A DNA stretch of 64,000 bases, taken from NCBI GenBank assembly GCA_038249195.1, contig JBBRWM010000001.1:75489-139488 (forward strand). The letters are read 5' to 3'. Position numbers and translations under genes: made by a program. Under the pieces are notes generated by a model. It saw only the letters and a list, made by a program, of their open reading frames with translations, made no database searches and had not been told where the DNA came from. This stretch comes from Actinomycetota bacterium. GTDB taxonomy: Bacteria > Actinomycetota > UBA4738 > HRBIN12. This document shows, one piece after another, positions 16,124 through 43,374 of this stretch. How positions within the stretch are numbered: the first letter of the stretch is position 1; the number at the start of each line of letters is the position of its first letter.

Positions 16124-16169
16124 TCTTCCTCGCCGTCAGCGTGACGGTAACGATTCGAAACGGCTCCCA

Positions 16170-18055: not shown

Positions 18056-18191
18056 CGACTCGCCTCCTCGCTCAACCCTGCGCGGCGATTCTCGCACATC
18101 TGTGCGACACCTTGCAAGCATGTCTTACCTAGCGTGATAAGCTGCACCGCGTCAAGAATCCTTCCCTGGTGTGATCGAAAGGAGGGGCACG

Positions 18192-18386: not shown

Positions 18387-18489
18387 GCGAACGAGGCAGG
18401 CAGGTGCACCTGACGAGCGAGATATCCAAGGGAACGGCCGAGGCGCGAACGCCCCGGCCGCAGCGACGCGCTTCACGGGGAGGCGCGAC

Positions 18490-19395: not shown

Positions 19396-19610
19396 TCGCA
19401 GAGGCCTCCAGGGCTCAGAGCCGATCGAGGGCTCCGCCGTGACCACCTCGTCGCCCACAGGGGTAGGGCGGGTCGGAAACTTCATGACCGAGGCCGGGCG
19501 CACACCTCGCGCCTCCCAACTTCGCACGCGCCCGAAACTGGCGATTTCAGCCGGTCAGTTTTCGCCCGAAACTCAATCGAGCCGGTCACGAAACTCAGTC
19601 CGCTGGTTCC

Positions 19611-20453: not shown

Positions 20454-20465
20454 GTCATCACTCCA

Positions 20466-21251: not shown

Positions 21252-21266
21252 GTCCGCAGCCCACGA

Positions 21267-27528: not shown

Positions 27529-27646
27529 GGGGGTTCAGGGCTCCGTGTTGTCGTCAAGGAACAATGGCCGGAGCTTATCCCAGCTCTGTCAGCCGGTCCG
27601 GCAGGGCCGTCGGCCGTCTGTCAGGGCTTCGGACTACGGTTCAGTG

Positions 27647-29386
27647 ATGAATAGCGGGAGCGCCGTGGATAAGGGAAGCCTAGCCCGGGTTCGATCCGCC
27701 CTCGCCGGCGCCTCGGCGCTTCACGAAACTTCAGCCGCCCTGCGCGCTAGCTGGACTGATCAGGAGCCGGACCCCGCCGAACCGTTCATCTGGGCGTTCG
27801 ACTACCACTACCTTGAATCCAGCCAGCGGCTCGCTCGCGGGGCTTCAGGGCCGTGGGGACCGATGCTCGAGATGGATGGCCGCATCTGGCCACCCCCGCT
27901 CCCGACTGTCGCCGACGAACACTTGGCCGCTTGGGCGGATGCGGCCGCTGCGCTGTCAGATCTTCCCCTCGGCGCAGCCAGGCTCCACGACCTGCTCTGG
28001 GAACGCCGCTGGGGCGAACGGCCGGACCTCCACGCTCGATCGGCAGTCGACGCCTACACCGCGCTGATCCCCGAGTCCGAATCGCTCGACTCGGCGCACC
28101 ACATCGCTCGCTCGATGGAACTGGCGATAGCGGTTGGCGACCGCGAGAGAGAACGCGAGGTAGTTGCGCTCAGCCTGGCGGCGGCTCGACGGTCGCTCGA
28201 AGCCTCGACCCCGGAACCCGGAGTCGCGCTGAGACATGCCGAAGCGCTTCTCACGCTCCCGCGCGAGCGGCAACCTGCCGAAGTCGACGAACTCCTGGAG
28301 GGCGCGGCCAGCATCTATGCCGACGATCCGTGGATCGTCGAGACGGTGTTGGACCTCAAGGTCGAACGATCGACGGATCCAGATGCCGTTCGCGCACTGC
28401 GATTGCAGCAGGTCAACACATGGCGAGCCGCTGCAAGCGAGGCGGCAGGCTTGGTGAAGCTCAGCCACCTCCAGCGTGCTCTCGAGCTGGCTCGATTGCA
28501 TAACCTCGGATTCCTGATTGACGAGGTCCGACTCGAGCTTCAGGCGATCTCTGAGGAAGACCTGGACCTTAAGGAACTTTCAGCCGAAGTCACCGTCCCG
28601 GCAGACGAGGTGGAGAGGTACATCGAGAGGCTCGTCGGGGGGAGCTGGCAGGAAGCGTTGACCGCCATCGGTGCGGTCGGCCCGCCAAGCGGCCAGGTCG
28701 AGAAGAACATCGCGGATATCGAGCAGCAGATGAAGGACTTTCCGCTCTCACACCTCTTCACGCGGACCCTGCTCGGACCCGACGGCATCCCGACCAAGAG
28801 CGCTATGAGTGAGGAGGAGCATAAGGCGGAGGCGTTGATCCGGCAGGAACTGTTCGGCATCCAGGTCGAGAGTCATTTCAGAGCTGAAGCCTTGGACCGT
28901 GCCAGGGAACGCTACGGGCAGCCGTCGGCGGAGGAGCTGGCCGAGTTCTTCACGACTCCGCTCATCACCGCCGAGATCGCCGAGCGCTTCGCTCGGTCGC
29001 TGGATCTGTACTGGAGCGGCCACTTCGATGAGGCCGCTCTGGTCGCCCTGCCGCGCATCGAAGCTGTCCTCCGCAATGTTGCCCGAGAAGGAGGCTTCGC
29101 GATCGTCCGAGAGCCCCAACCGACCAAACCCGGCGGTGTGAAGCCGCTCGGAGAGATCCTCCGTCTCCTGGAAGGCGGGTATCCGGAGTCGTGGCGAAGG
29201 TACTTGCTGAACGCGCTCGTGGAGCCGACAGGGTTCAATCTCAGGAACGTCCACCTTCACGGGGTGCGGGCTGCCGCCACCCGCGAAGAAGCGGCCATCT
29301 TGATACAGATCGCCTGCCATTTGCGACTCATCCGAAGCGGTCCGTCGGACGACGAGACGAGTCCACACCACCCTGCGCCGGCCTAG
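27647..29386 (+). CDS. Large hypothetical protein (579 aa), mostly alpha-helical, with a C-terminal 'RN..HG' motif (DUF4209-like?)
   Basis: GTG/ATG at 27644/27647. C-terminus ...YLLNALVEPTGFNLRNVHLHGVRAAATREEAAILIQIACHLRLI. Divergent from hsdM across a 118-bp gap. The ORF's 5' extension of 52 aa is rejected. Confidence 0.5.
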   Translation: MNSGSAVDKGSLARVRSALAGASALHETSAALRASWTDQEPDPAEPFIWAFDYHYLESSQRLARGASGPWGPMLEMDGRIWPPPLPTVADEHLAAWADAAAALSDLPLGAARLHDLLWERRWGERPDLHARSAVDAYTALIPESESLDSAHHIARSMELAIAVGDREREREVVALSLAAARRSLEASTPEPGVALRHAEALLTLPRERQPAEVDELLEGAASIYADDPWIVETVLDLKVERSTDPDAVRALRLQQVNTWRAAASEAAGLVKLSHLQRALELARLHNLGFLIDEVRLELQAISEEDLDLKELSAEVTVPADEVERYIERLVGGSWQEALTAIGAVGPPSGQVEKNIADIEQQMKDFPLSHLFTRTLLGPDGIPTKSAMSEEEHKAEALIRQELFGIQVESHFRAEALDRARERYGQPSAEELAEFFTTPLITAEIAERFARSLDLYWSGHFDEAALVALPRIEAVLRNVAREGGFAIVREPQPTKPGGVKPLGEILRLLEGGYPESWRRYLLNALVEPTGFNLRNVHLHGVRAAATREEAAILIQIACHLRLIRSGPSDDETSPHHPAPA

Positions 29387-29423
29387 GCCTAGCCCAGACG
29401 GGAATCGGCGGTGTATACGTCTC

Positions 29424-29960
29424 GTGATGAGAGCGGACGCGACGGCGCGCGGGAAGGAGTGCCTTGCGCTTCTCGAGCAGGCCGGCCGCGATGCGGGTTG
29501 GACCGTGGTGCGGGAGTACCCGGTACCCGGCGGGAGAGTCGACCTTGTCTGGACCTGGCAGCCCGATTCGGCACTGGCCGGTGCCCCCGGACCGATCCCG
29601 ATCGTGGGCTTCGAGGTCGAGTCCAGTTGGCGCACCCGGCAGCACGTCAAGGGCGACCTCGTCAACCTGGCGGCCCTCCAGGCTGCGCTTGGAGTGATCG
29701 TCTTGCTTGGCCTCGATGAGGGCGACGGCTTGCTCCCGCACGCCGAGGAGCTGGTCGAGCGGTGGCCCTGGCGGATAGTCGTGTGGACCGAACGCGACGT
29801 CGAAGGACTCGTGAACGGCCTCGGCAACCAACCATTGAGTTTCGCGGCTGGCTGCGCAAGCGCGGGACCATCGACCGAGGACGATCCTGCTTCGACGACG
29901 ACGAGCCACGCGGGGGGTGGCGTGACGCCCACACACGGTCGTGTCCCGTCAAGTGGTTGA
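29424..29960 (+). CDS. Hypothetical protein with a possible PD-(D/E)xK-like core, 3' end abutting or interrupted by the IS256 insertion
   Basis: GRVDLVW...IVGFEVESSWRTRQHVKGD. The C-terminal 50 aa are low-complexity. The IS target duplication lies inside this tail. Confidence 0.35.
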   Translation: MMRADATARGKECLALLEQAGRDAGWTVVREYPVPGGRVDLVWTWQPDSALAGAPGPIPIVGFEVESSWRTRQHVKGDLVNLAALQAALGVIVLLGLDEGDGLLPHAEELVERWPWRIVVWTERDVEGLVNGLGNQPLSFAAGCASAGPSTEDDPASTTTSHAGGGVTPTHGRVPSSG

Positions 29961-31322
29961 GATTCGTCACCGCCATCCTCGCTTCCTAGGCGATCGCAGC
30001 GAGTAGTTCCTTGGGGTCCTCACCTCCCTCGAGCTCGGCGGCCTTGGCCATGGATCCGATCGAGAAGTAGCGGCGATCGGCCACCTGCCATTCGTCGTCT
30101 TGTTCAGCGAGCAGCGTCCCGACCATGCGCATCAACGAGTCGAGCGTCGGGAAGATCCCGATCACTCGGGTGCGCCGCTTGACCTCCTTGTGCAGCCGCT
30201 CGATCGGGTTGGTCGAGTGCAGCCGACGCCGGTGTTCCCGGGGGAAGTGCATGTGGGCCAGCACGTCTTCTGCGGCGTCTTCCAGCAGCTCCGCGGCCTG
30301 GGGGAACCTGGGCTCGAGCATCCGTGCGACCTCGTGCAGCTGGGTCATCGCCGAGGCGTGATCGGGGGCCACGAACACGGTGCGCACCACCGCGGCCACG
30401 GTGTCTTGAGCACCCTTGGGCACCGTGGACAGCAGGTTCCGCATGAAGTGAACCCGGCATCGCTGCCAGGTGGCCCCGGTGAGCACCTTCGCGATCGCCT
30501 GGCGCAGTCCCTCGTGCGCATCAGAAATCACCAGACGCACCCCTTTCAGCCCTCGCTTGATCAACGAGCGAAGGAACGACGTCCAGAACTGATGGTCCTC
30601 GCTCTGGCCGGTGGCCGCACCCAAGATCGTGCGTTGGCCTTCGGCGTTCACCCCGATCGCGACGACCGTGGCGACCGAGGTGACGCGGCCGGCCTGACGC
30701 ACCTTGTGGAAGGTGGCGTCCAACCACACGTAGGGGTGCTCGCCTTCGATCGGGCGCGTGAGGAAGTCCTTCACCTCGCCATCTAATGACTTGCAGATCC
30801 TGGAGACCTCCGAGCGTGAGATCCCATCGATCCCCAGGGCTTTGACGAGGTCATCGACCTTGCGGGTGCTCACGCCCTTGACGTAGGCCTCGACCACCAC
30901 CGCATGCATCGCCTTCTCGGCTCGCCGGCGGGGTTCGAGCAGGCTCGGGAAATAGGCCCCGGCACTCACCTTGGGGATCTTGAGCTCGATCGTGCCCGCC
31001 CGGGTGTCCCAGCGCCTGGTGCGGTAGCCGTTGCGGTAGGCGACCCGCTCGGAGCTGCGTTCATACGGCCCAGCACCGATCTGGGAGGAGACCTCGGTCT
31101 CCATCACGGCTTGGGCGAGCACCCGCACGCCTTCACGAAGCAGATCCACGTCGTCTTCCTCGAGAAGCTTGCCGACGAACGACGTGATGTCCATCCTGTT
31201 GGTGGCCATCGTCCCTCCCCATCTGACTGTCCTGTCGATGAGGATGGCGGTGGCCATCTATGTCACGGGGATTTCCACCCCGGATCTCCACTTCGAAAGT
31301 CCACCACTTCTCGGGACGCTAA
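29937..31322. mobile_element. IS256-family insertion sequence with imperfect terminal IRs and a 9-bp target-site duplication CCCACACAC
   Basis: Left IR ggtcgtGTCCCGTCAAGTGGTTGAGATTCG. The right end reverse-complements to GTCCCGAGAAGTGGTGGACTTTCG. TSD at 29928-29936 and 31323-31331. Confidence 0.8.
29986..31209 (-). CDS. tnp: IS256-family (mutator-type) transposase
   Basis: ATG at 31209 (MATNRMDITSFVGKLLEED...). DDE region ...VWLDATFHKVRQ...LVISDAHEGL. Confidence 0.9.
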   Translation of the reverse strand: MATNRMDITSFVGKLLEEDDVDLLREGVRVLAQAVMETEVSSQIGAGPYERSSERVAYRNGYRTRRWDTRAGTIELKIPKVSAGAYFPSLLEPRRRAEKAMHAVVVEAYVKGVSTRKVDDLVKALGIDGISRSEVSRICKSLDGEVKDFLTRPIEGEHPYVWLDATFHKVRQAGRVTSVATVVAIGVNAEGQRTILGAATGQSEDHQFWTSFLRSLIKRGLKGVRLVISDAHEGLRQAIAKVLTGATWQRCRVHFMRNLLSTVPKGAQDTVAAVVRTVFVAPDHASAMTQLHEVARMLEPRFPQAAELLEDAAEDVLAHMHFPREHRRRLHSTNPIERLHKEVKRRTRVIGIFPTLDSLMRMVGTLLAEQDDEWQVADRRYFSIGSMAKAAELEGGEDPKELLAAIA

Positions 31323-31603
31323 CCCACACACTTCGGCAAGTACCGGGCTCTATACGACTGGCTGACGGCCAATCAGCGGATCGCGTGCCAGCGACCTTCG
31401 GCCAGGTGGAGGAGATTCTGGGGTTCCCTCTCCCACGATCCTCAAGAGACCACCCGGCGCACTGGTCTGGGTACGAGGGCAGCGCAGTCGCGAGAGCGAT
31501 CGCTGACGCAGGCTGGCGAGCCAGGAACGTGAACCTGGCCGCCGAGACCCTCGTCTTCGAGCGCGTGACCTGAGGTGGATCGCCTCAGACGCGGCCCTGC
31601 TGA

Positions 31604-32449
31604 CTAGCTGTTTCCAAGAAGATCGTCGCGGACATCGCGCACGAAGGACGTGCACACGGCTTCCACTCGATCCGCTGGAACCCCGACGCGCAGAGCCTCC
31701 ACCGCCATCTGTATGCCACGGCTCGCCCGGGCTCCGAAGAGTTCGTCGAGGAACGCCAAGGCTGCTGCGGTCGGCGCCTCGGCTATGGGGTCGGCGAGCA
31801 GCGGCCGTAGCCTCTGGAGGAAGTCCTCGACCGGCACCGCCTGCATGATGCGGTAGACGTCCGCGGCGTCCTTGTCAGCGATCCGGTCATCCTTACCCGC
31901 ATGCAGGCGCTCGTGCAGCTTGTGGAGCTTCGCCACCACAAGGGCGGCCGGTCCGGCGACCCGGACCGAGAAGCTTCGAGTCTCCGTAGCTTCGAGCCCG
32001 GAGATCTCCATGACATCGACGTCGATGACCACTCCTTCAAGGCCCAGGGCCTTGCGCGCCGACATCTTGTCGTGGGGCTCGATCCGCGCGCCTCTGGTTC
32101 CGCCGGGAGGGGCGAGGCCCTCTGGCACCATGACGTCGACCGGGATGATCACGCTCCGCCCACCGACCCCGACGCTCTTGATCCAGGCCCCTGGCTGTTG
32201 TCCCTCTTGCGAGAACCCTCCTGCGCGCATCAGCTCCTCGAGGTGAGGCTGATCGGCCAGATCGGCAGGCGAGAGAGCGAGGTCCGCGTCGGTCGTGTAC
32301 GGGGCAACCGAGATATCGCCGTCCCCGGTCCTGAGGTAGACCGCCTGAGCGCCGACTACGACCACCGCGTCCCTCTGCGACCCGAGAGCCTCGAGCGCAT
32401 CCAGCAATACCGAGCGTGCGGCGACGTACAGCGGGTCGTAGTCAGTCAC
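31604..32449 (-). CDS. Nucleotidyltransferase-fold protein, AbiEii-like (putative type IV TA toxin / Abi)
   Basis: GTG at 32449, 3 nt after the upstream stop. N-terminal NTase motif VVVGAQAVYLRTGD...TTDADLAL (hG[GS]...DxD). Confidence 0.5.
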   Translation of the reverse strand: MTDYDPLYVAARSVLLDALEALGSQRDAVVVVGAQAVYLRTGDGDISVAPYTTDADLALSPADLADQPHLEELMRAGGFSQEGQQPGAWIKSVGVGGRSVIIPVDVMVPEGLAPPGGTRGARIEPHDKMSARKALGLEGVVIDVDVMEISGLEATETRSFSVRVAGPAALVVAKLHKLHERLHAGKDDRIADKDAADVYRIMQAVPVEDFLQRLRPLLADPIAEAPTAAALAFLDELFGARASRGIQMAVEALRVGVPADRVEAVCTSFVRDVRDDLLGNS

Positions 32450-32452
32450 CCG

Positions 32453-33568
32453 TCACTCGCGTTCGACCGCTGCGGCCATGGCCTCGATCGAGGCGTAGCG
32501 CCATGTGTTCTCGTTCTCGCGCATCCACTCGATCACGGCGTCGCCTTCGGCGGGCATCCGTCCGCTGCCGGCTAGGCAATCCATCGCCACCTGGCTGGGC
32601 GCGGCCCACACCAGGCCGCCGTCGCGGACCGCGCGCGCGAACACGACCTCGTTGTCGGGACGCACCAGGACGACGTCCGCGCCGGTCTCGGCGGGGAGGA
32701 GCTCGAGCTCTTGGGCGAGGTCGCGCGGCGACATCGTGTACATGACGAGCAGGGTCGGCGCGGCCACCGGCGAAAGACGAGCGGCGGCGAACGATCCGGT
32801 GATCGTCGGCGCTCCCTCCGGCCCGCGCATCGCCAGTTGCTCCACGAGTCCACGCGCGCCCTGGCGGGCGACGTAGCGGAAGCTCCCGGTCGGACGGAAG
32901 AGGTCGAGCACCTGTGCTCGGCGCCGGAGCACGGCGGGCCAGTCGACTCCGGTGACTGGGCCTGGGCTCTCCCTCTCGATCAGTCCCTCGTCGTCAAGGG
33001 TCTCCAGGATGCGGGAGACGTATCCCTCGTTGACGTTCGCTGCCTTCGCGATCTCGGCCCCGGTGTACGGCGGGGTTGCGTCGACCAGCACCCGAACGAC
33101 CGCACCGACCTTCGCGCCTCGCAACCCTCGTCGCGACTTCGTCGCCGAGGGGTCGCGCTGGGCGCCTTGGGTCTCGATGAAGACGCCGACCTGATCCAGG
33201 CTGATGCGGATGTTCCCCGTCAGGTCCACGTAGCTGACGCTCTCTTCCACCAGCAGCTCACGGACCTTCGGGCTTACATAGGGCGCGACGACCAGGATCG
33301 GGTAGTTCCCCATCTGCTTACGGAGGCGCCTCCACGGTCCACCCATGAGCACCTGCACATCGCGCACCGAGACGTCGGAGCGAGCTACGACGGCGACCGG
33401 TGTCTGAGATGACGGCTGCGGTCCCTTGATGATCAGGTCCTGGGGCTCGGGATCACCCCCGAGAGAGATCTTCTCGATGGCCCAGTTCGTGGGCAGGCGG
33501 CGGGTGAGCACATCGATCGCCGCGTCCAGGAGCTGGTTTTCCGTCCGTTCCAGTTGTTGGGCTTCCAT
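32453..33568 (-). CDS. Winged-HTH DNA-binding protein, AbiEi-like putative antitoxin/regulator
   Basis: AAGGAGG RBS, then ATG at 33568 (MEAQQLERTENQ...). Central MarR-like wHTH TGAEIAKAANVNEGYVSRILETLDDEGLIERE. Confidence 0.5.
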   Translation of the reverse strand: MEAQQLERTENQLLDAAIDVLTRRLPTNWAIEKISLGGDPEPQDLIIKGPQPSSQTPVAVVARSDVSVRDVQVLMGGPWRRLRKQMGNYPILVVAPYVSPKVRELLVEESVSYVDLTGNIRISLDQVGVFIETQGAQRDPSATKSRRGLRGAKVGAVVRVLVDATPPYTGAEIAKAANVNEGYVSRILETLDDEGLIERESPGPVTGVDWPAVLRRRAQVLDLFRPTGSFRYVARQGARGLVEQLAMRGPEGAPTITGSFAAARLSPVAAPTLLVMYTMSPRDLAQELELLPAETGADVVLVRPDNEVVFARAVRDGGLVWAAPSQVAMDCLAGSGRMPAEGDAVIEWMRENENTWRYASIEAMAAAVERE

Positions 33569-33576
33569 CTTGCCTC

Positions 33577-33598
33577 CTTGCCTCACCTTGGCAAGGGT
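33577..33598. promoter_or_regulatory. Inverted repeat TTGCC-N12-GGCAA overlapping the RBS of the wHTH gene, with further GGCAAGG direct repeats to 33682
   Basis: cttgcctccttgcctcaccttggcaagg and ggcaaggcttgtccagtctagacaaggcttgcc (contains GTCTAGAC). Confidence 0.35.
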
Positions 33599-33823
33599 AC
33601 ATGTATCGGGCAAGGCTTGTCCAGTCTAGACAAGGCTTGCCTGTCTCACGTGCGCGTGTCAGGGTCAGGCAATCTGGCAAGGTATCGGGTTCGCGCCTCG
33701 TTTCACTCTTTCGCCCGTTTCACCGCGGCGGTGAATATGGCCGATCCAGTGAAACGTGGCGCCTCCTGGTCGCGGGCTACCCTTGCGGGCGTTGGGGCGT
33801 CACCTGGGAGGTGGGACAGACCG

Positions 33824-34645
33824 ATGGCTGGGGTAGGGAGCACCGTGGGGCAGCTCTTCGTGATCGCCCGCAACCCTGAGCCGGACTCCAAGCTCCCTTA
33901 CCTGCTCAGCCTCCCGCTCGAGGGCCCCCTGATCCTCAAGGCACGCGACACCTGGCCGCGGGCCACGCGGATCTACTGCCACCCCTTCGAGGACGTGTGG
34001 CCCGCCGACGCCGACGTCATCGAGGAGACGCCGGTCACCTCGTGCCGGCGGCGGGGCGCGGTGATCGATCTGGTGCTCGACCGGCCGCGGAACACGCGGT
34101 CCCAGTTCGTGTTCACAGAGACCCGCGGACGACCCGCGATCTTCTGGCAGACGCAGAAGGCCGCCCGCGCGGCGAACCCCGGCGCTCGGATCCCGCGCCG
34201 CCGGGCCCTGACCGAGACCTTCACGATCTCGATCGACACGAGGGAGCGCTACCCCTACCGCTTCTCCGGCAGGAACGTCTTGGTCGAGCGCGCGACGCTG
34301 CAGGCCGGGGACTACGCGATCCTCGCCGACGGCGAGATCCTCGCGACGGTCGAGCGGAAGACCTTGGAGAACTTCGCGTCCTCGCTCTCGGACGGCACCA
34401 TCGCGTTCCAGATGCAGCGCCTCGGCGAGGCGCCGCGCGCCGCCGTGGTGGTGGAGGCCCGCTACTCCGCCCTGTTCAAGCTCGATCACGTTCCCGCGGG
34501 CTGGATCGCCGACGTGCTCGCCCGCCTGCAGGTCCGCTACCCGGAGATCCAGGTGGTCTTCGCCGACTCCCGGAAGTTCGCGGAAGAGTGGGCCTTCCGG
34601 TTCCTGGCTGCGGCGCTCGCCGAGGCCACCGACCGGGCGCCATAG
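33824..34645 (+). CDS. ERCC4 (XPF/Mus81-type) nuclease-domain protein, paralog 1
   Basis: ISIDTRE...GDYAIL...VERKTLENF matches the ERCC4 signature (V/IDxRE ... GDY ... ERKxxxD). Confidence 0.6.
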   Translation: MAGVGSTVGQLFVIARNPEPDSKLPYLLSLPLEGPLILKARDTWPRATRIYCHPFEDVWPADADVIEETPVTSCRRRGAVIDLVLDRPRNTRSQFVFTETRGRPAIFWQTQKAARAANPGARIPRRRALTETFTISIDTRERYPYRFSGRNVLVERATLQAGDYAILADGEILATVERKTLENFASSLSDGTIAFQMQRLGEAPRAAVVVEARYSALFKLDHVPAGWIADVLARLQVRYPEIQVVFADSRKFAEEWAFRFLAAALAEATDRAP

Positions 34646-34788
34646 CCATGAATGGGTCCCACATGGGTCCCACACGCGGACGCGAACCGGCGCGAAACGG
34701 CGCCACCCGACGCCAACCCTCAACCGCTCGTTTCCCCTGCTCAGCGGCCATTCAACTCCATCACCGCTGGTAGGCGAACCGCCCTCCG

Positions 34789-34836
34789 ATCACCCTCTCA
34801 AGGTGAAGACACGGGTTCAAATCCCGTTGGGACTAC
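34789..34836. repeat. attR: second copy of the tRNA-Glu 3' 48-mer
   Basis: Identical to 15710-15757. Confidence 0.85.
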
Positions 34837-35029
34837 GAGTCTGAACAGGCCGAACGCGTTCGGGGGACCTCCCGGGCCCGTGGCAACTGCGGTGGCAACG
34901 AGCCTCAGGAACGCCTCCTTCCAGGAGGACGCTTAACCGGGCTGAGCATCACGCATCAGGACCCTACGACCTTGTTCGCCTTCCCCTTGATCTGCCCTTC
35001 GTCCCTGCCCATAGTTCAACTCCCGGCCG

Positions 35030-35206
35030 CTACTTGAGGTGCAGACTGACCCCCAAGAGGATCAAGGGCCACAGAAGCACCGCGAGGACCGCAGACGCGA
35101 TCGGCTTCGCCGCGTCCAGATGCTCGAAGTAGTGGTGTCCGGCCGCCACGATCACGCCGACGATGATGTAGACGACGAAGAGAACCGCGCCCACCGTGCG
35201 ACTCAT
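35030..35206 (-). CDS. Small membrane protein (58 aa, two predicted TM helices)
   Basis: Translated manually as MSRTVGAVLFVVYIIVGVIVAAGHHYFEHLDAAKPIASAVLAVLLWPLILLGVSLHLK. Below the ORF-track cutoff. Confidence 0.35.
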   Translation of the reverse strand: MSRTVGAVLFVVYIIVGVIVAAGHHYFEHLDAAKPIASAVLAVLLWPLILLGVSLHLK

Positions 35207-35250
35207 GTCTGCCCCTATCTCTCGTCCTTCGTTCGGGCCGGACCTTCGTT

Positions 35251-35342
35251 CATGCGCGCCTCACGAAATAGATGATCGCCATCACGACAAGGACGACCAC
35301 GATGAGGCCGACGATCCCGATACCTCCGATAGCTGCAAGCAT
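35251..35342 (-). CDS. 30-aa hydrophobic peptide with a strong Shine-Dalgarno sequence
   Basis: gggagg-6nt-ATG. MLAAIGGIGIVGLIVVVLVVMAIIYFVRRA. Confidence 0.35.
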
Positions 35343-35720
35343 CGTTTTCCTCCCTTCGTATCTCCATCCGTACCAGCGTTCTTGCTGACAGCTCGCTTCC
35401 TCGCGTCACGCGAGCGTCACCGGACGCTCCTCCGCTTCCTGAGCGAGGAACAATTCCACCCAGGTCGGAACGATACCGTAGACACCCTCGGGAGCACCCG
35501 CCGTGGCCATCGCTGGCTCGGCGCCCCCCGAGTCGAGCAGTTGCGTGATCCGCGCTCGGAACCCGTCGCCACGTTGCCCTTCTATCCACACGCGAACGAT
35601 CAGGATCCCCGTGCGGTCCGATGTTTGCGAGCTCATGCGCTCATCTTCGTGAAAGCTCGTCACGGTGCTGTCACCGGCTCCCTGCTCCACCGGACCCATG
35701 GGCCGGATGGAACGAATCGG

Positions 35721-35924
35721 TCAGCGCAGGCCCTCGACCAAGGCTCGCAAGTTCTCCGAGGGGTCGAGCCCCGACTCCGCCCTGAAGGGGGGGCGGAACG
35801 CGTCGTACTCACGGAGGGCCGCATCGATGTTGTGCTCCGCGAGGTGCGCCTGGATGAGCGCGTGACGGGCGCTCTCACGCAAGGGCTCCCCCGACACCGC
35901 CGCGAGACCAGCCTCCTCGTTCAC
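35721..35924 (-). pseudogene. Fragment of a SARP/AfsR-type BTAD-domain regulator
   Basis: ALIQAHLAEHNIDAALREYDAFRPPFRAESGLDPSENLRALVEGL matches the BTAD consensus but is isolated (67 aa). Confidence 0.4.
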
Positions 35925-36144
35925 CTCGGCGACGTCGTCAAGGTCCTACGAGGGGTCGAGCACCCGGTGGGCGAGGGCTTTGCCTTCCCGCAGGTCGACG
36001 GCCACCGTCGGGGCCAGCTGGATGTGATCGCTCGTCAGCTCGAACGAATCATACGCCACTGCCTGAGCCCGGCAGGTGTAGGCCGGAGGCCTTGTAGTCC
36101 CAAGGCTTGCGCTGACCCTCCCGTAACGCAGGGCCCGAAGACAC

Positions 36145-36184
36145 TCTCGAGGTAAAGACACGGGTTCAGATCCCGTTGGGACTA
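36145..36184. repeat. Degenerate third copy of the tRNA-Glu 3' repeat (old att remnant)
   Basis: ctctcgaggtaaagacacgggttcagatcccgttgggactatc versus ctctcaaggtgaagacacgggttcaaatcccgttgggactac. Confidence 0.7.
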
Positions 36185-36236
36185 TCAGGAACGCTGTTCG
36201 CACCGCCATCACCCAAGGGTCATCCCGTGAGGACTC

Positions 36237-39218
36237 TCAGGCCGCGTACTGATCAGGTGCGGCAGTGAAGCTGTTGTGACAGCTCTGCGAACAGAAGGAG
36301 TACGTCGTGCCGTCGTACTCCTCGCTTGCGGCGGCCGTCGCCGGATCGATCTCCATGCCACACACCGGATCCTTCACGGTTGCCATGGTCTGCTCATCCT
36401 TGACGGGTTCTCGGTCGCCGACCTCCACCTGGACCGAACCGGTGACGGGGCGACCTCCACCGGCCACGGTTGGCGGCCTGAACCGGCGGAGGCGGTTCGC
36501 GTTCGTCACGACCGAGAGCGAGCTGGCGGCCATCGCCGCGGCGGCGATCATCGGGTTCAGCACGATCCCGAAGAAGGGATACAGGATGCCCGCCGCGATC
36601 GGGATACCGATCGCGTTGTAGATGAACGCGAAGAACAGGTTCTGCCGGATGTTGCGCATCGTGGCGCGGCTGAGCGCCAACGCCGACACCACGCCGCGCA
36701 GGTCTCCGGAGATGAGCGTGACGTCGGCGGCCTCGATCGCGACGTCGGTCCCGGTCCCGATCGCGATGCCGACGTCGGCTTGGGCGAGCGCCGGCGCGTC
36801 GTTGATCCCGTCGCCGACCATGGCGACCAGCTTCCCCTCATCCTGGAGCCGGAGAATCTCCAGCGCCTTGTCCTGCGGTAGCACCTCCGCGAGGACGCGC
36901 TCGATGCCGACCTGCCGTGCGACGGCCTCGGCGGTGCGCGCGTTGTCGCCGGTGATCATGACGACCTCGAGTCCGAGGTCCCGCAGAGCGCGCACGGCGG
37001 CAGGCGAGTCCTCCTTGATCGTGTCGGCGACCGCGACGACGCCGGCCAGACGTCCATCGATCGCGGTGTAGATGGCGGTCCTTCCCTCCGAGGCGAGACG
37101 CCCGGCGGTCTCCTCCAGCGCCGAGGGATCGGTGCCCGCGTCGGTGAGGAACTCCTTTCGGCCGACCAGCACCTCGTGTCCTTCGACGATCGCTCGGACC
37201 CCGTGGCCCGTCACGGAATCGAACGCGCTCGCATCGGCGAAGTCGATCCCTCGTGCCTGGGCTCCCGCCACGATCGCCGAGGCGAGCGGATGCTCCGATG
37301 AGCGCTCGGCGGATGCTACGAGACGAAGCAGCGCCTCGTCGCCGAAGCCGTTCGCGACGACGACATCGGTCAGGGCGGGCGCACCCTTGGTGATCGTGCC
37401 CGTCTTGTCCAGGACGATCGCGTCCAACTTGTGCGCGGTCTCCAACGCCTCCGCGGATCTGATCAGGACGCCGTTCTCCGCACCCTTTCCGGTCCCGACC
37501 ATGATGGAGAGCGGCGTCGCGAGCCCGAGGGCGCACGGGCACGCGATGATCAGGACCGACACGGCGCTCACGAGGGCGAACGTGAGGGCCGGCGACGGTC
37601 CGAAGTCGAACCAGATGACGAACGTGGCGATCGCGATGAACACGGCCGCCGGCACGAAGTAGCTGGCGACGAGATCCGCCAGCCGCTGGATCGGCGCCTT
37701 CGAGGCCTGGGCCCGCTCGACGAGCCCGATGATCTGCGCGAGCATCGTGTCGCGCCCGACCTTCGTGGCGCGGAACCGGAACGCGCCCGTCTGGTTGATC
37801 GTCGCGCCGATCACCGCGTCGCCGGTGTCCTTCGAGACCGGGATCGGCTCGCCGGTCACCATCGACTCGTCCACGGCCGATCGGCCATCGACGACCTCGC
37901 CGTCGACCGGGATCTTCTCGCCGGGTCGAACGAGGACCACGTCGCCGACCCCGACGTCCTCGATCGGGATCTCGCGCTCCTCGCCGTCGCGCACGACGCG
38001 CGCGGTCCTCGCCTGCAGCCCGATCAGTGTGCGGATGGCCTCTCCGGTTCCGGCCTTAGCCCTCGCCTCGAAGAGCCGACCCAGCAGGATCAGCGTGAGG
38101 ATCACGCCGACGGCCTCGTAGTAGACCTCCCGGAGCCCCGGCGGCACCATGCCGGGAGCGACCGTCACGAACAGGGAGTACCCGAACGCCGCGCACGTCC
38201 CGAGCGTGACGAGGGAGTTCATGTCGGCCGTGCGGTGGCTCAGGATGAGCCAGCCGGTGCGGTGGATCGGCCACCCCGTGTAGAGCATCACGGGTGCGAT
38301 GAACGCCAGCTGCACCCACGGGTTCAGCAGGAAGTCCGGCACCCAGGTCGCGTCGAAGAACTGCGTCGCCATGACGGCGACGAGCACGGGCGTCGTGAGG
38401 ATCGCGCCGACCACGACACGGCGCGAGAGGTCGCGGGTCTCGGCCCGCCGCGCGATCGCTTCCGTATCCTCCGTCTCGGCAGAGCCGGGCTCGCGCCGTT
38501 CCTCGACCCGATACCCGACCGCCTGGATGGCGTCGCGCATCTGCGCGGCGTCGACCTGCGATGGGTCGAAGTCCACAGCAACCCGCTCGGCGCCGTAGTT
38601 GGTCTCGACGCGGTCGACACCGGGGAGGCGGTCGAGCAGTGATCCGATGTTCGTAACGCACGTGGGGCATGCGAGCCCGTCGGCGCGAAGCGAGAACTCC
38701 ACCCGGCTCGTGCCGCTCACCTGTTGGTTCGGTCCCACCCCCACGGCTCTCGCCGCTTCGTGCGTGTGTGACGCGGCGGCAGACGGTTCGCGGCCGGCCT
38801 GCGTCGCCTCCGTCGCGGGCGCTCGCCTTTCGCCGTCACCGTCTCCCGCCTCGACGAGGAGGGTGCCGTGCAGCATGTTCATCCCACAGGCGAACCCGAA
38901 CTCCCCGATCCTCGTCGGCGTGAACTCCACCGTCGTCCGACCGAAAGCGGCGAGCGACTTGCCGACTCCGAAGTCCGGGAAGACCACCCGTGCGGAGCAA
39001 TCGCTGTTCTCCTGACGGTCGAAGACGAGCCGGAGGGGGACGCCTTCCTGCACCCGGATGAGGTTCGGCGAGTAGCCACCCTTGACGGTGATCTCGACCT
39101 CCTGGACCCCTCCGCGCACCTCGGCCCGTCGGGCCTGTTTGGGACCGAAGAAGAACCATCCGAGCCCCGCGATCAATGCCACGCCGCCCGCCGTTATCAG
39201 GACCTCCGTTCCCGTCAC
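36237..39218 (-). CDS. copA: Copper-translocating P1B-type ATPase with N-terminal cupredoxin-like and HMA domains and a C-terminal YHS/TRASH domain
   Basis: CPC ([13 protein letters not shown]), [13 protein letters not shown], CxxC HMA (GLACPTCV). C-terminal DPVCGMEID...YSFCSQSCH. Confidence 0.9.
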
Positions 39219-39295
39219 GTCGCTTCGCTCCTCCCGCAGATCTGGTGGCTCTCCGATGGCTCCTCGAACACCTTGACGCGCTTCTCGCTATACCT

Positions 39296-39312
39296 ATACC
39301 CTGGAGGGGTAT
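39296..39312. promoter_or_regulatory. CsoR-type operator palindrome ATACCC-N5-GGGTAT in the csoR/copA divergent promoter
   Basis: tatacctATACCCtggagGGGTATcat lies between the copA start (39218) and the csoR start (39354). Confidence 0.55.
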
Positions 39313-39353
39313 CATCCGTCAAACGGGATCTGCGGAGCGATCGGGAGGCGAAC

Positions 39354-39644
39354 GTGGCGATCCAGGCACGCGGGTACACGGCGACCAAACAGCAGCTGAT
39401 GCAGCGTCTAGCCAAGATCGAGGGTCAGGTCCGGGGCGTCTCGAAGATGGTCGAGGAGGACCGCTACTGCATCGACGTCGTGACGCAGATCAACGCCGCG
39501 AGGGCAGCGTTGGACAAGGTCGGCCTCGGGCTGTTGGACGGTCACGTCCGCCACTGCCTGATCGGCGGACACGGGGGCCCGACCGACCCGGACGAACAGG
39601 CTCAAGAGCTGATGGGAGCCGTGGGCCGGATGGTCTCGCGCTAG
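39354..39644 (+). CDS. csoR: CsoR/RcnR-family copper-sensing repressor
   Basis: gggagg RBS, then GTG. ...YCIDVVTQINAARAALDKVGLGLLDGHVRHC (Cys-His-Cys ligand pattern). Confidence 0.8.
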   Translation: MAIQARGYTATKQQLMQRLAKIEGQVRGVSKMVEEDRYCIDVVTQINAARAALDKVGLGLLDGHVRHCLIGGHGGPTDPDEQAQELMGAVGRMVSR

Positions 39645-39666
39645 GGCCGCGGCCGTGGCGGGAAGG

Positions 39667-40488
39667 ATGACCGACGAGAGGAGCGACGCTGGACGGCTCT
39701 TCGTCATCGCCAGCAACCCTGAGCCCGACTCCAAGCTCCCCTACCTCCTCAGCCTGCCCCTTGAAGGCTCCCCCATCCTGAAGGCGCGCGACACGTGGCC
39801 GAGAGCCACGCGGATCTACTGCCATCCATTCGATGACCTGTGGCCCTCCGACGCCGAGGTCATCGAGGAGACACCGGTCGCCTCATGCCGCCGGCGGGGG
39901 GCGGTGATCGACCTGGTGCTCGACCGGCCGAGGAACAAACGCTCTCAGTTCGTGTTCACACAAACCCGTGAGCGCCCCGCGATCTTCTGGCAGACCCAGA
40001 AGGCCGCGCGATCGGCGAACCCTGGGGCGCGCGTGCCTCGCGCCCGCGCCCTGAGCGAGACCTTCACGATCTCGATCGACACGAGGGAGCGCTACCCCTA
40101 CCGCTTCGCCGGCCGAGACATCGTCCTCGAGCGCGCCACGCTGCAAGCCGGGGACTACGCTGTCCTGGCGGAGAACGAGGTCATCGCGACGGTCGAGCGC
40201 AAGACCCTGGAGAACTTCACCGCCTCCCTCTCCGACGGCTCCCTCGCCTTCCAGCTGCAGCGGCTCGGCGAGGCACCGCGCGCCGCGGTCGTGGTAGAGG
40301 CTCGCTACTCGGCGCTGTTCAAACTCGATCACGTGCCCGCGGCGTGGATCGCCGACATGCTCGTCCGCCTGCAGGTTCGCTATCCGGAGATCCAGGTCGT
40401 CTTCGCCGACTCCAGGAAGTTCGCCGAGGAATGGACCTACCGCTTCTTGGCCGCGGCACTCGCCGAGGCCGCGGAGCGGACGCCATAG
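39667..40488 (+). CDS. ERCC4-type nuclease-domain protein, paralog 2 (about 85% identical to 33824-34645)
   Basis: LFVIASNPEPDSKLPYLLSLPLEG...ISIDTRE...GDYAVL...VERKTLENF. Confidence 0.6.
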   Translation: MTDERSDAGRLFVIASNPEPDSKLPYLLSLPLEGSPILKARDTWPRATRIYCHPFDDLWPSDAEVIEETPVASCRRRGAVIDLVLDRPRNKRSQFVFTQTRERPAIFWQTQKAARSANPGARVPRARALSETFTISIDTRERYPYRFAGRDIVLERATLQAGDYAVLAENEVIATVERKTLENFTASLSDGSLAFQLQRLGEAPRAAVVVEARYSALFKLDHVPAAWIADMLVRLQVRYPEIQVVFADSRKFAEEWTYRFLAAALAEAAERTP

Positions 40489-40524
40489 CACTCGATCGTG
40501 AACGACGCGGATCCGGCCTAGGGC

Positions 40525-41829
40525 TCAGCGTTCACTGATCGCGTCCACCGGCGGCGGGGCGTCCGGCAGGCGCATCACCGACCCACTCTCGGGCACCGAG
40601 ACGTGAACATGGCGCTCGGGCGGCTCAGGCGCCGCGTCGGGCATCTCGCGAACCTCCACCGGCAGCAGGCGATACCACAGGACGCCCAAGACCCCCGCGG
40701 CCGCGCATCCGATCCCTCCGATCATGAGCACCGCCCGGCCGCTCAGCACCACGAGAAGGCCGCCCGCGATCGCCGTGGCCGCCAGCTGCATGCCGTTGGC
40801 GAGGCCGCCGTAGGCCGCGAAGACCCGGCCACGATAGCGATCCTCCACCCGATGGACGATGAGGCTGCGCATCGAGACGCTCTGCACTCCGTTGGCGGCC
40901 CCCCCCACGGCGAACAGGATCAACGCGGGGATCAGTAGCGCGATGGCGGCCGCGCCACCCACCGCCAGCCCCAGGACGACGGAGGCGCCGAGGAGCGCGG
41001 GCACGAGCCGGCGGTTCGGCAGCTTGCGCGCGATCAAGGCGGCCCCGATCATGAGCCCGGCGAGCCACGCCGAGGCGAGCAGCCCGTAGCCCCACGCTCC
41101 CGCCATGAGGTTGTCCTGTGCGAAGAACACCTCCGCGACGTTGTCCATGGCTGCGAAGAGGATGACGGCCGTGAACACGGTGAAGGCCATGGCGAGGAGC
41201 GCGTCGCGGCGGATCACGCCCAGGCCGGCGCGCGCCTCCTCCTTCACGCCGTCCTCGGTCGCCTCCTGTGGCCGCCGACGCACGGTGAGGGCCAGCGCGG
41301 CCAGGGCGATGAGCACGAACGTGCCCGCGTCCACCAGCAGGGCCGCTCCAGATCCCACGCCGGCGGTGATCGTTCCCGCGAGGACCGGGCCGAGGATCAT
41401 GCCGCCGTAACGCGCCGTCTCGAGATACGCGTTTCCCGCCGTTGCGTGCTCGTCCCCCACAACGGCCGGCACGAGGGTGTAAAGGGCCGGGCTCGCGACC
41501 GCCAGCCCGGTCCCGAGCAGGAACGCCAACAACAAGAGGATGGGCAGCCCCGACGCGAAGGCAAGGCCGAGCGCCACCGCCGCCTGGAACGCCGTGGCCA
41601 CGGCGAGCGTGCGGGTTGTCTCGAAGTTGTCCACGATGACGCCCGCAGACGGCGCGAAGAGCACCAGGGGCAGCAGGCCGGCGAGTAGCAGGGCGGCCAC
41701 GGCCAGGCCGGAATGCGTGGCGGCGACCTTGAGGGTGAGGGCGATCAGGGCGAGTTCGTCGCCCAGGGAGGAGAGGCCGGAGGCCACCACCAACAGGCGG
41801 AAATCACGGCCGCGGAACGCCCCCTCCAC
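40525..41829 (-). CDS. MFS transporter
   Basis: 434 aa, about 12 TM segments. Typical MFS N-terminus. Confidence 0.8.
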   Translation of the reverse strand: MEGAFRGRDFRLLVVASGLSSLGDELALIALTLKVAATHSGLAVAALLLAGLLPLVLFAPSAGVIVDNFETTRTLAVATAFQAAVALGLAFASGLPILLLLAFLLGTGLAVASPALYTLVPAVVGDEHATAGNAYLETARYGGMILGPVLAGTITAGVGSGAALLVDAGTFVLIALAALALTVRRRPQEATEDGVKEEARAGLGVIRRDALLAMAFTVFTAVILFAAMDNVAEVFFAQDNLMAGAWGYGLLASAWLAGLMIGAALIARKLPNRRLVPALLGASVVLGLAVGGAAAIALLIPALILFAVGGAANGVQSVSMRSLIVHRVEDRYRGRVFAAYGGLANGMQLAATAIAGGLLVVLSGRAVLMIGGIGCAAAGVLGVLWYRLLPVEVREMPDAAPEPPERHVHVSVPESGSVMRLPDAPPPVDAISER

Positions 41830-42120: not shown

Positions 42121-43374
42121 ATGTTCGAGGGACTCCGAGACCTGCAAGGCGCAGCGCCCTCTGTGAGCAAGCTTCGTCTGGTGGTCGATTCGTTGCGTGC
42201 CGAGACGCTTGCCGAGCTGCCCGACGCGTCCATCGAGGCGGATCTCTGTGAGCTGCAGCGGACCTGCGAGGCCCTCGAGATCGAACGCGCACGCCGCGTC
42301 CGGGAGGCGGAGCGCCGCCGCCTGTTCGAACGCGACGGGCATCTTTCGGTCGGTGCGTGGCTCGTGGCTCGATTCCGGATGAGCTGGGCGGGCGCTCGGA
42401 GCCTGGCCGGATTGGGACGGAGCCTCGAGCAGATGCCAGTGACGCGGCGCGGCCTCGAGGACGGCGAGATCTCCCTCGCCGCCGCCCGGGTGCTGGCCGG
42501 CGCCCTCGCAGGCGAGCCGGAGGCGTTCGCCGAAGCGGAGCGGACGCTCGTCGAGGCCGCGAAGCTGCACTCGATCGTCGGGCTTCAACGCGTGGCGGCC
42601 CATTGGCGCGATGTGGTCTGCGAGGGGCTGGGATTTGATGGGCGCCTCGCGCGAAGGTTCCTCCATGCGTCCACGACGCTGGGGGGCATGGTGCGCGTGG
42701 ACGCAGACCTGGATCCCGAGACGGGTGAGAGCGTTCTGACGGCGATCCGTGCGGTGCTCGACGCGGAGGCGAGGAGCCGCACACCGCAGGACGATCGAAC
42801 GCCCTCCCAACGCAGAGCGGACGCCCTCGGCGAGGTCTGTCGGGCATGGCTCGAGCGCACAGATCGCCCCACCGTCGGTGTCGAGCGTCCCCACATCACC
42901 GTGACGGTACCGCTGGACGTTTTGCGCTCTCAGGGCATCGCGGAGTTCGACATCGCCGGCACCGCGAGCGCCGAGGCGGCCCGGCGCTTGGCGTGCGACG
43001 CCTCGGTGACGCGCGTCGTGCTCGGACCCCGCTCCGAGCCGTTGGACGTCGGGCGACGCACTCCCGTCGTTCCCGCCTCGATGCGCCGGGCGCTCCACGT
43101 GCGTGACGGGGCATGTCGGTTCCCGGGTTGCGAGCGTCCCAAGAGCTGGTGCGATGCCCACCACGTGCGGCACTGGGCACACGGCGGTCCCACCTCGGTC
43201 GGCAATCTCGTACTGCTGTGCCGACGCCACCACCGGTTGATCCATGAGGGCGGCTTCTCGGTCGTGATATCCGGCGGCCGACCCATGTTCGGGCGTCCGG
43301 ACGGCTCCAGCCTCGACGGCCTGTCCCCACCCCTGGGCGAGGTGCAGCCGGGGCCGATGTCCGCCTCACGGTGA
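42121..43374 (+). CDS. HNH endonuclease-domain protein (DUF222 + HNH; 13E12-repeat-type)
   Basis: C-terminal CRFPGCERPKSWCDAHHVRHWAHGGPTSVGNLVLLCRRHHRLIHE. Confidence 0.75.
   Translation: MFEGLRDLQGAAPSVSKLRLVVDSLRAETLAELPDASIEADLCELQRTCEALEIERARRVREAERRRLFERDGHLSVGAWLVARFRMSWAGARSLAGLGRSLEQMPVTRRGLEDGEISLAAARVLAGALAGEPEAFAEAERTLVEAAKLHSIVGLQRVAAHWRDVVCEGLGFDGRLARRFLHASTTLGGMVRVDADLDPETGESVLTAIRAVLDAEARSRTPQDDRTPSQRRADALGEVCRAWLERTDRPTVGVERPHITVTVPLDVLRSQGIAEFDIAGTASAEAARRLACDASVTRVVLGPRSEPLDVGRRTPVVPASMRRALHVRDGACRFPGCERPKSWCDAHHVRHWAHGGPTSVGNLVLLCRRHHRLIHEGGFSVVISGGRPMFGRPDGSSLDGLSPPLGEVQPGPMSASR

Follow-up and report, generated by a model that had tools for sequence, protein, structure and literature searches.

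Two-domain ERCC4-fold proteins linked to bacterial mobile DNA: a pair of genes at a tRNA-Glu hotspot of an actinomycetotal genome, probably from separate arrivals

Two genes encoding ERCC4-domain proteins of the XPF/Mus81 type are located in a 64,000-nt stretch of the genome of an Actinomycetota bacterium (lineage HRBIN12; GenBank assembly GCA_038249195.1, contig JBBRWM010000001.1, positions 75,489 to 139,488), which was analyzed at its full length and is referred to below as the window. Copy 1 (33824-34645, forward strand) is located at the right end of a predicted island integrated at a tRNA-Glu gene, and copy 2 (39655-40488, forward strand) lies outside this island. Our analysis suggests that both encode a two-domain, structure-specific nuclease that is carried as cargo by mobile elements, and that the gene was acquired twice at tRNA-Glu; we put the probability of this combined reading at about 0.5.

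The two genes are closely similar and appear to be functional coding sequences. Copy 1 encodes 273 aa, with an N-terminal, eight-stranded beta barrel (residues ~15-114), a linker, and an ERCC4 nuclease domain (~133-270). Copy 2 encodes 277 aa when read from the GTG at 39655 and 273 aa from the ATG at 39667; the latter start, behind a GGAAGG ribosome-binding site, is more likely, and the 273-aa form is also the one recorded in the protein database. The proteins are 84% identical without gaps (E = 4e-170), and the genes are 85.4% identical at the DNA level (33853-34646 versus 39696-40489), without indels. The DNA similarity is confined to the open reading frames (ORFs) and ends exactly at the stop codons. 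Because 74 of the 116 nucleotide differences are at third codon positions and there is not a single indel, both copies have been maintained as coding sequence. To judge from the sequences, both are under purifying selection, with ratios of nonsynonymous to synonymous substitution rates (dN/dS) of 0.07-0.18 over all ERCC4 pairs compared and of 0.11-0.18 for the pairs that include a copy from the window. The Pfam ERCC4 model (PF02732; curated cutoff, 24 bits) is matched over its full length by residues ~137-264 of both proteins, with 52.7 and 56.6 bits, respectively, and phrog_3490 ('ERCC4-type nuclease') matches as well. No Pfam or NCBIfam family matched the first ~130 residues of either copy, and PADLOC-DB v2 yielded no match for either one at E <= 0.01. 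A first-pass annotation, made from the letters of the sequence and their ORFs, had described two roughly 85%-identical ERCC4 (XPF/Mus81-type) nuclease genes with different flanking DNA, and in all these respects it agrees with the profile matches and with the fold described next.

The structure predicted by AlphaFold2 from an alignment of 34 sequences (mean predicted local distance difference test score, pLDDT, 89.6) consists of an all-beta domain of eight strands (15-114), a short helix, a low-confidence linker, and an alpha/beta domain that ends in a single helix (254-274). In a Foldseek comparison with the PDB, the top 23 matches were all ERCC4-fold chains of Hef, XPF-ERCC1, and Mus81-Eme1, mostly of the catalytic subunit; the best match was the Hef nuclease domain (1j22; TM-target 0.81, root-mean-square deviation 2.5 A), followed by XPF and Mus81. 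The GDY and ERK motifs align residue for residue with Hef, XPF, and ApeXPF in HMMER alignments, D-x-x-E likewise has its counterpart in archaeal Hef and XPF, and the columns D142, E145, G166-D167-Y168, E181-R182-K183, and E215 (numbered in copy 2 from the GTG at 39655) are nearly invariant in the family. The catalytic motif, on which the first-pass annotation had staked the nuclease assignment, is therefore conserved in its GDxn...ERK part, while the final Asp of ERKx3D is replaced by Asn (N187) in both copies (VERKTLEN), with a neighboring Glu (E186). More distant members keep the Asp (ERKSLPD and similar). Among the 216 members with GD...ERK, 139 have [E/D]N at these two positions, 68 have xD (including ED and DD), and about nine have no carboxylate at either, that is, 207 of the 216 scored members (96%) keep a carboxylate at one of two adjacent positions. 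We infer that the ERKx3D carboxylate has been shifted by one residue and that the active site has not been lost. The protein is thus a stand-alone, two-domain ERCC4-fold protein with a near-complete catalytic set.

The N-terminal domain, modelled alone, reached a pLDDT of 86.9, and its one confident fold match in the PDB was the 3'-phosphoesterase (PE) of an archaeal LigD (3p43; Foldseek probability 1.0, TM 0.57, 124 columns). An identification as a LigD PE domain was considered and rejected: hhalign against the PE alignment gave a probability of 2.8%, and no PE match was obtained in searches of 23 members against Pfam or in PDB profile searches. The catalytic PE motifs (His-x5-His-x-Asp-x-Arg/EDHP) are also absent, the only conserved His being that of C56-H57. 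On the basis of the model, we describe the domain as a new barrel of PE-like fold that represents a previously undescribed family. No helix-hairpin-helix (HhH) match to Pfam was obtained for either copy, and a (HhH)2 domain was accordingly not found. The combination of a barrel and an ERCC4 domain without (HhH)2 is a new architecture, a variant within a known nuclease superfamily. In distant members of the family, the nuclease is followed at the C-terminus by an Lsr2 DNA-binding domain (above the Pfam cutoff) or by a winged helix (a DeoR-type match above the cutoff in one member), fusions which indicate that the family acts on DNA. Longer family members that seemed to carry additional domains proved to be mostly frameshifted gene calls. 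In one 450-aa member (P0124), the C-terminal ~170 residues looked by eye like GIY-YIG (GIYAVL...LYVGKA); Pfam gave no match there at E <= 0.01.

Copy 1 is the last gene of what we read as an intact, 19-kb defense island integrated at tRNA-Glu(CTC), spanning 15758-34836. The tRNA gene (15684-15757, forward strand) was identified by ARAGORN and matched the Rfam tRNA model with 63.8 bits; a scan of the window against Rfam yielded two tRNAs only. The last 48 nt of tRNA-Glu (15710-15757, forward strand) constitute the left attachment site, attL, and are repeated with 100% identity at 34789-34836 (forward strand), constituting attR. A tyrosine integrase is encoded beside the tRNA on the reverse strand (16170-17663; Pfam Phage_integrase, Phage_int_M, and Phage_int_SAM_3, with weak NCBIfam matches to Xer-type recombinases); these coordinates are those of the longest ORF, and the real start is probably further downstream. 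Direct repeats of the tRNA 3' end and a tyrosine integrase next to the tRNA, the two features of a tRNA-targeting integrative island, are thus both present. In addition, a tandem pair of 11-mers lies just inside each island end. The left pair, TGGGTCGCACA TGGGTCCCACA, was found by pattern search at 15815-15836 (forward strand; copies at 15815 and 15826), and the right one is a TGGGTCCCACA pair at 34653-34674 (forward strand; copies at 34653 and 34664); both are putative arm-type sites of the integrase. Altogether, TGGGTCCCACA has five matches in the window versus 0.79 expected by chance. The stop codon of copy 1 is 7 nt ahead of the first right-hand TGGGTCCCACA, within one base of the 6 bp given in the first-pass annotation, which had also placed copy 1 at the right island edge. 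The GC content is 0.62-0.67 inside the island and about 0.70 in the flanks. When metagenomes were scanned with the doublet TGGGTCSCACATGGGTCCCACA of the arm repeats, five contigs were obtained, which were discarded as island relatives since they show no similarity to the window and are chance matches.

Five contigs of metagenome-assembled genomes (MAGs) from related lineages share the neighborhood of the window and were compared with it (L003-L006 and L034). Their common layout is tRNA-Gln (where the contig reaches it), tRNA-Glu(CTC), a variable stretch, the ERCC4 gene, an amidase gene (preceded in some cases by a gene for a major facilitator superfamily, MFS, transporter), and gltX; L003 ends at the amidase and does not reach gltX. 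Each of the five has a single ERCC4 gene, to which copy 1 is closer (86-88.5% at the nucleotide level) than copy 2 (84-85%). The same was true at the protein level: in a set of 120 close homologues, P0009, P0005, and P0002 are 91%, 89.7%, and 89% identical to copy 1, respectively, whereas copy 2 is 83.5% identical to it, and in a neighbor-joining tree the two copies are not sisters.

The similarity to the relatives extends beyond the gene. The segment 33699-34836, which comprises a leader of ~125 nt, the ORF, the 11-mer pair, a spacer of ~115 nt, and att, is collinear with L034 9858-10999 (88.5%) and with L006 9886-11015 (87.5%), versus only ~72-74% DNA identity among these genomes in the adjacent amidase-gltX core block. 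The leader, a putative promoter region (33699-33823, forward strand), is ~80-88% identical in L034 (from 9858), L006 (from 9886), L004, and L003; a sigma-70 consensus was not found in it, and sigma-70 promoter and intrinsic-terminator scans around both copies detected none. The identical 11-mer doublet follows ERCC4 in L006 (10832-10853), degenerate doublets do so in L034 and L003, and L005 has one copy of the left-end repeat in the matching place, 57 nt past the tRNA end (115-125). Copies of att follow ERCC4 in L006 (10969-11015), L034 (10954-10999), and, in degenerate form, L004 (1253-1320). The latter contig contains a mini-element of only ~1.2 kb, consisting of tRNA-Glu, ERCC4, and the degenerate att copy. 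Upstream of the module, window positions 31640-33699 match L005 191-2252 at 86%; L005 encodes, upstream of its ERCC4 gene, the 386-aa protein that precedes copy 1 (92% aa identity), while the adjoining 281-aa ORF is frameshifted. L005 thus combines the 386-aa neighbor of copy 1 with the ERCC4-MFS junction of copy 2. The simplest reading of these alignments is that leader, ERCC4, arm repeats, and att form a right-end module of tRNA-Glu elements that is exchanged among these bacteria.

The synonymous distances (dS) point in the same direction. Between the window and the relatives, dS of gltX is 0.9-1.05, while dS of ERCC4 between genomes is 0.31-0.61; between L005 and L006 the relation is inverted, with 0.23 for gltX and 0.49 for ERCC4. 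Copies 1 and 2 differ by a dS of 0.52. Because the copies are not each other's closest relatives, because ERCC4 and gltX are incongruent in dS, and because ERCC4 is conserved together with its non-coding right end, the copies are most likely two independent arrivals (xenologs) at the tRNA-Glu hotspot, as far as sequence comparison can tell, and not the result of duplication in place.

Copy 2 appears to be a remnant of an earlier arrival, with csoR now in place of the leader and with the arm repeats and att gone: none of the three was detected, including in a search for att or arm relics after the gene, which is followed directly by the MFS transporter gene, as in L005. The DNA between the two copies carries further traces of integration. 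A third, degenerate att copy (88%) is located at 36135-36184 (forward strand), 1.3 kb to the right of attR, and closes a segment (34837-36184) that holds small ORFs and a fragment of a BTAD-domain gene (35721-35924, reverse strand; Pfam). This segment appears to be what is left of an older tandem insertion, now mostly deleted, that ended at 36135-36184, and the decayed att copy and the BTAD fragment fit tandem accretion at the tRNA-Glu hotspot.

Two other origins of the pair have to be weighed. ERCC4 might be an ordinary chromosomal repair gene next to tRNA-Glu, a copy of which was captured by islands through imprecise excision or recombination, in which case the association with mobile DNA would be a by-product of the hotspot neighborhood. 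Such an origin would account for the ERCC4 genes that follow tRNA-Glu after 210-242 bp, with little in between, in L003 and L004, for the conserved MFS-amidase-gltX synteny downstream, for the very high conservation and low dN/dS, and for the ordinary metabolic neighbors at most of the 84 family loci inspected. However, simple capture of downstream DNA would leave ERCC4 outside the att-bounded segment, whereas in the window, L006, and L034 it lies inside, with the arm repeats and attR to its right. Furthermore, its dS does not track that of gltX, and in unrelated lineages it is found within the inverted repeats of IS481-like units, in a tRNA-Ala element, and on plasmids (see below); we regard this origin as unlikely. 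Gene-level duplication within the genome, which the first-pass annotation had proposed, with one copy later coming to lie at the island edge, would fit two copies on one contig, 5 kb apart in the same orientation, with similarity confined to the ORF, but it did not hold up: copy 1 is nearer to the proteins of other genomes than to copy 2, its coding and non-coding flanks are conserved there at 86-88%, the dS between the copies is as large as that between genomes, and gene-conversion tracts were not seen (the longest identical run is 52 bp), which makes this origin very improbable.

The association with mobile DNA is not restricted to tRNA-Glu. The family is large, with 5,512 matches in a word-indexed search and 2,070 cluster representatives at E <= 1e-3, and members with 54-88% identity to the query occur in MAGs of Actinomycetota, Dormibacterota, Chloroflexota, Binatia, and Kofleriaceae (Myxococcota). 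In 11 of the 84 loci, ERCC4 is directly adjacent to an IS481-like transposase gene (HTH_32 + rve_3). Terminal inverted repeats (TGwrGGGGTCsAAAA) enclose transposase and ERCC4 in five of the loci, forming IS481-like units of 2.0-2.2 kb with the transposase in either orientation (L084 8870-10836, L023 166-2178, L029 4099-6104, L076 8659-10856, and L063 3412-5607). Clear target-site duplications were not found around these units, and in the family tree the ERCC4 copies linked to these insertion sequences (IS) do not group together but fall into several clades. In L012 (10632-12183), a related IS carries another passenger, of 115 aa. In the window, neither an IS481-type transposase match beside ERCC4 nor such an inverted repeat was found.

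A second type of carrier is exemplified by L027, in which a 1.7-kb ERCC4 segment lies between two identical 39-bp direct copies of the 5' portion of tRNA-Ala(TGC) (4064-4102 and 5783-5821). ERCC4 is located beside tRNA-Ala in the clade of L027, and tRNA-Ile(GAT) is nearby in the same clade; these two tRNA genes are usually found in rRNA spacers. Altogether, 24 tRNAs are located within 1 kb of ERCC4 genes, while the remainder of these loci would predict 2.7; the count is not corrected for relatedness. Plasmids represent a third type: homologues with 45-49% identity, most of which cover both domains, were found on 23 plasmids of Mycobacterium (including pMUM002), Rhodococcus, Streptomyces, and Pseudonocardia, where they adjoin genes for site-specific recombinases, IS21, or toxin-antitoxin systems. 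These observations establish, at the level of gene context, that the gene is carried by several kinds of mobile DNA, a linkage that had been anticipated in the first-pass annotation. A phage origin was also considered and is not supported, since searches of 50,697 phage records and of IMG/VR matched no family member.

No conserved partner gene was detected among the 271 first- and second-shell neighbors of the 84 loci; the only recurring neighbors were rve transposases, PIN, and glyoxalase genes, and none of the 271 was Ku, LigD, a helicase, or a methylase. MAG contigs often end within ERCC4 or a few dozen bases from it (e.g., L011, L013, L016, L025, L028, L030, L036, L048, and L065), and one MAG, SRP119689_co1_113, has two ERCC4 loci (L012 and L070), which suggests repetition of the gene, or of the DNA around it, in the genomes concerned.

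How the protein might act can be outlined from its nearest structural relatives. It would dimerize through the ERCC4 domain, as in archaeal Hef/XPF, and Mg2+ would be bound by D142, E145, D167, E181, R182, and K183 together with the relocated carboxylate E186 next to N187. Branched DNA, such as 3' flaps, forks, and nicked junctions, would be cut at the junctions between single-stranded and duplex DNA, and the barrel might substitute for (HhH)2 and help to recognize the DNA junction or the 3' end. The nuclease could in this way clear branched intermediates that arise from recombination, replication, or transposition of its carrier, an activity that would also benefit the host, and such a benefit would account for the persistence of the gene in elements that have otherwise decayed. 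The role toward which we tentatively lean, at less than even odds, is that the protein processes branched intermediates formed when its own carrier recombines, replicates, or transposes, and that the host benefits on the side; plain repair cargo is a possible but somewhat doubtful role.

Several points weigh against the combined reading of a mobile, twice-acquired nuclease. Both copies have Asn in place of the canonical ERKx3D Asp, and the Glu one residue earlier may be out of reach of the metal site. The protein comes without (HhH)2 or another known dimerization or DNA-binding module, and DNA binding by the barrel is a guess. The island around copy 1 is full of defense genes, which would fit a role in defense equally well. 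Regarding the origin, copy 2 has no recognizable att or arm relic, its status as an older element being based on the relatives and on dS and not on direct structure; the direction of transfer is unprovable, and ERCC4 could have started out on the chromosome, next to tRNA-Glu, and have been picked up by elements later. Finally, the loci compared are MAG contigs that are not independent, and the tRNA and IS counts are inflated by shared ancestry.

Among the alternative functions, a nuclease of defense or of conflict between elements is rather unlikely in our view. One form of this would be a type IV-like restriction enzyme that uses the barrel to sense modified or foreign DNA, another a nuclease aimed at competing elements, and ERCC4 would for this reason be carried on islands, IS, and plasmids. 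In line with this, the island of copy 1 contains type I restriction-modification, PDC-S39-like, and PDC-M66-like genes, ERCC4 is a single-gene unit in variable contexts, often beside PIN or toxin-antitoxin genes, and it is found on plasmids, yet is absent from the phage records and IMG/VR. Some relatives contain an Lsr2 domain, and Lsr2 binds AT-rich foreign DNA. However, there is no PADLOC match, the conservation (55-60% identity between phyla) is unusually high for a defense gene, residence in a 2-kb IS is unusual for restriction genes, and the barrel has no confident match to known readers of modified bases, its only confident fold match in the PDB being the LigD phosphoesterase.

We consider it about equally unlikely that the ERCC4 protein is a dedicated mobility accessory factor that is encoded at the extreme end of IS481-like transposons and tRNA elements and acts in their movement reaction. 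Such a factor might cut the second strand, resolve figure-eight or Holliday-type intermediates, or cleave empty target sites and so drive the spread of its carrier. If this were true, it would add a new class to the helpers of transposition or integration, and a bacterial enzyme of the XPF family would for the first time have an assigned function.

It is improbable that the protein is catalytically dead and serves as an ERCC4-like scaffold that binds DNA, in the manner of ERCC1, EME1, FAAP24, or LlaI.R1. The Asn in place of the ERKx3D Asp, in both copies and in most close relatives, would be compatible with a scaffold, and non-catalytic DNA-binding ERCC4 folds are known (preprint 10.64898/2026.08.31.748284). 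Yet a carboxylate is kept by nearly all members at one of the two neighboring positions, with ED and DD occurring as intermediates, and the other catalytic positions (D, E, GD, and ERK) are nearly invariant. In ERCC1 and EME1, these catalytic positions have been lost. An anti-defense enzyme that degrades cyclic nucleotide signals, for which the ERCC4-like EP364R of African swine fever virus, which cleaves cGAMP (PMC9364804), is a viral precedent acting on a cyclic dinucleotide and with which carriage on mobile elements would agree, is highly improbable, given the DNA-binding fusions in relatives, the absence of the gene from the phages searched, and the lack of anything in the sequence that ties the protein specifically to EP364R.

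The remaining genes of the island are arranged in the order tRNA-Glu, integrase, helix-turn-helix (HTH) protein, DUF3037/HipA pair, restriction-modification system, PDC-S39, IS256, two ORFs, and copy 1. The cargo from 17339 to 31257 was annotated with Pfam and PADLOC. It begins, after the integrase, with the HTH protein (Pfam), followed by a stretch of defense genes (19611-29386) that includes a DUF3037 + HipA-like pair (PADLOC PDC-M66A/B; Pfam), a complete type I restriction-modification system, hsdR/S/M (21267-27528; hsdR of 998 aa; Pfam and PADLOC), and a PDC-S39-like ORF of 631 aa (27491-29386; PADLOC). An IS256/Mutator-family transposase (29986-31257; Pfam) closes the cargo. The two ORFs directly upstream of copy 1 (31604-33613, reverse strand) encode 281 aa and 386 aa, the latter a winged-helix HTH protein; they had weak HTH matches only and very weak PADLOC matches (PDC-M21B and PDC-M05A), and may form a pair of a toxin-antitoxin or abortive-infection-like type. 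Four GGCAAGG(C/T)-type repeats at 33590-33690, between the 386-aa HTH gene and copy 1, may be operator sites of the HTH protein.

Copy 2 is situated next to genes of copper homeostasis. A copper P1B-type ATPase with cupredoxin, HMA, and YHS domains (36237-39218, reverse strand; Pfam) is divergent from csoR (39345-39644, forward strand), which encodes a metal-sensing repressor (Pfam Trns_repr_metal, 1.1e-27); the position of the second copy behind csoR and outside the island is as stated in the first-pass annotation. The copA-csoR intergenic region, in the stretch 39219-39667, contains the palindrome ATACCCTGGAGGGGTAT (39296-39312), a candidate CsoR operator that we take to be a CsoR box. Copy 2 starts 10-22 nt past the csoR stop codon, and a terminator scan found no terminator-like site in between. 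The gene, which also lies downstream of the palindrome, is probably co-transcribed with csoR and probably derepressed by copper. The linkage to csoR is likely an accident of insertion and not a clue to function. The MFS transporter gene downstream (40525-41829, reverse strand; Pfam, synteny with L004 and L005) is the first gene of the flank shared with the relatives (MFS, amidase, gltX). Between the MFS and amidase genes, the window has a DUF222 + HNH endonuclease gene (42121-43374, forward strand) that is not found there in L004 and L005 and is probably a separate mobile insertion. At the other side, just after tRNA-Gln, three tandem paralogues of the Pfam Phosphoesterase family (7529-12098, reverse strand; 539, 498, and 484 aa) are 71-84% identical at the nucleotide level over the aligned parts; L002 and L003 have two.

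The closest known systems are the nuclease domains of archaeal Hef and crenarchaeal XPF (PDB 1J22-1J25, 2BGW, and 2BHN), with which the protein shares the ERCC4 fold, the aligned D-x-x-E/GDY/ERK motifs, and the size of a minimal, homodimeric nuclease domain. It differs from them in that it has neither a helicase domain nor a C-terminal (HhH)2 and that a beta barrel of ~100 residues precedes the nuclease, as well as in the replacement of the ERKx3D Asp by Asn with a preceding Glu, in the bacterial host, and in carriage by mobile elements. XPF-ERCC1 and MUS81-EME1 belong to the same catalytic domain family (Foldseek E = 1e-5 to 1e-7), and by analogy the same chemistry, that is, cleavage of 3' flaps, forks, and nicked junctions, would be expected. 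However, they function only as heterodimers, in which one subunit is non-catalytic, and have large regulatory regions, whereas here a single gene without a conserved partner is involved. The LigD PE domain (PDB 3P43 and 3N9B) is likewise an eight-stranded barrel, which in LigD handles DNA 3' ends; sequence support for a relationship and the PE His/His/Asp/Arg motif are both absent here.

As for the carriers, the island resembles other tRNA islands with tyrosine integrases, such as P4-like and actinomycete integrative elements, in the repeat of the tRNA 3' end, the integrase next to attL, the arm-type repeats at both ends, the low-GC cargo, and tandem accretion with decayed att copies. In contrast to these, no conjugation or replication genes were seen in it, and a conserved nuclease gene occupies the attR-proximal end and survives in mini-elements of ~1.2 kb (L004 and L027). 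The units found in relatives resemble the IS481 family in having an rve-type DDE transposase with HTH_32 inside terminal inverted repeats that start with TG, but they are ~2.0-2.2 kb long and carry ERCC4 as a second gene, and a description of such units was not found in the literature searched.

Nucleases of the XPF/Mus81/Hef type are central to repair in eukaryotes and archaea. To our knowledge, no bacterial member has been characterized, and none was found in the literature searched; searches for IS481 with ERCC4, for bacterial ERCC4 domain-containing proteins, and for ERCC4 with plasmids and Mycobacterium yielded no study of this family, in accordance with the earlier remark that bacterial ERCC4 proteins are poorly characterized. 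The family is large and unusually conserved, and the plasmid-borne homologues in cultivable Mycobacterium, Rhodococcus, and Streptomyces open it to experimental study. ERCC4 followed by two copies of TGGGTCCCACA and att may serve as a marker for finding further elements of this kind, and the ERCC4 pair in the window would record two rounds of integration at one tRNA hotspot. That the gene is found repeatedly at the termini of unrelated mobile elements suggests that its function is tied to mobile DNA, be it the processing of intermediates, conflict between elements, or a benefit in repair.

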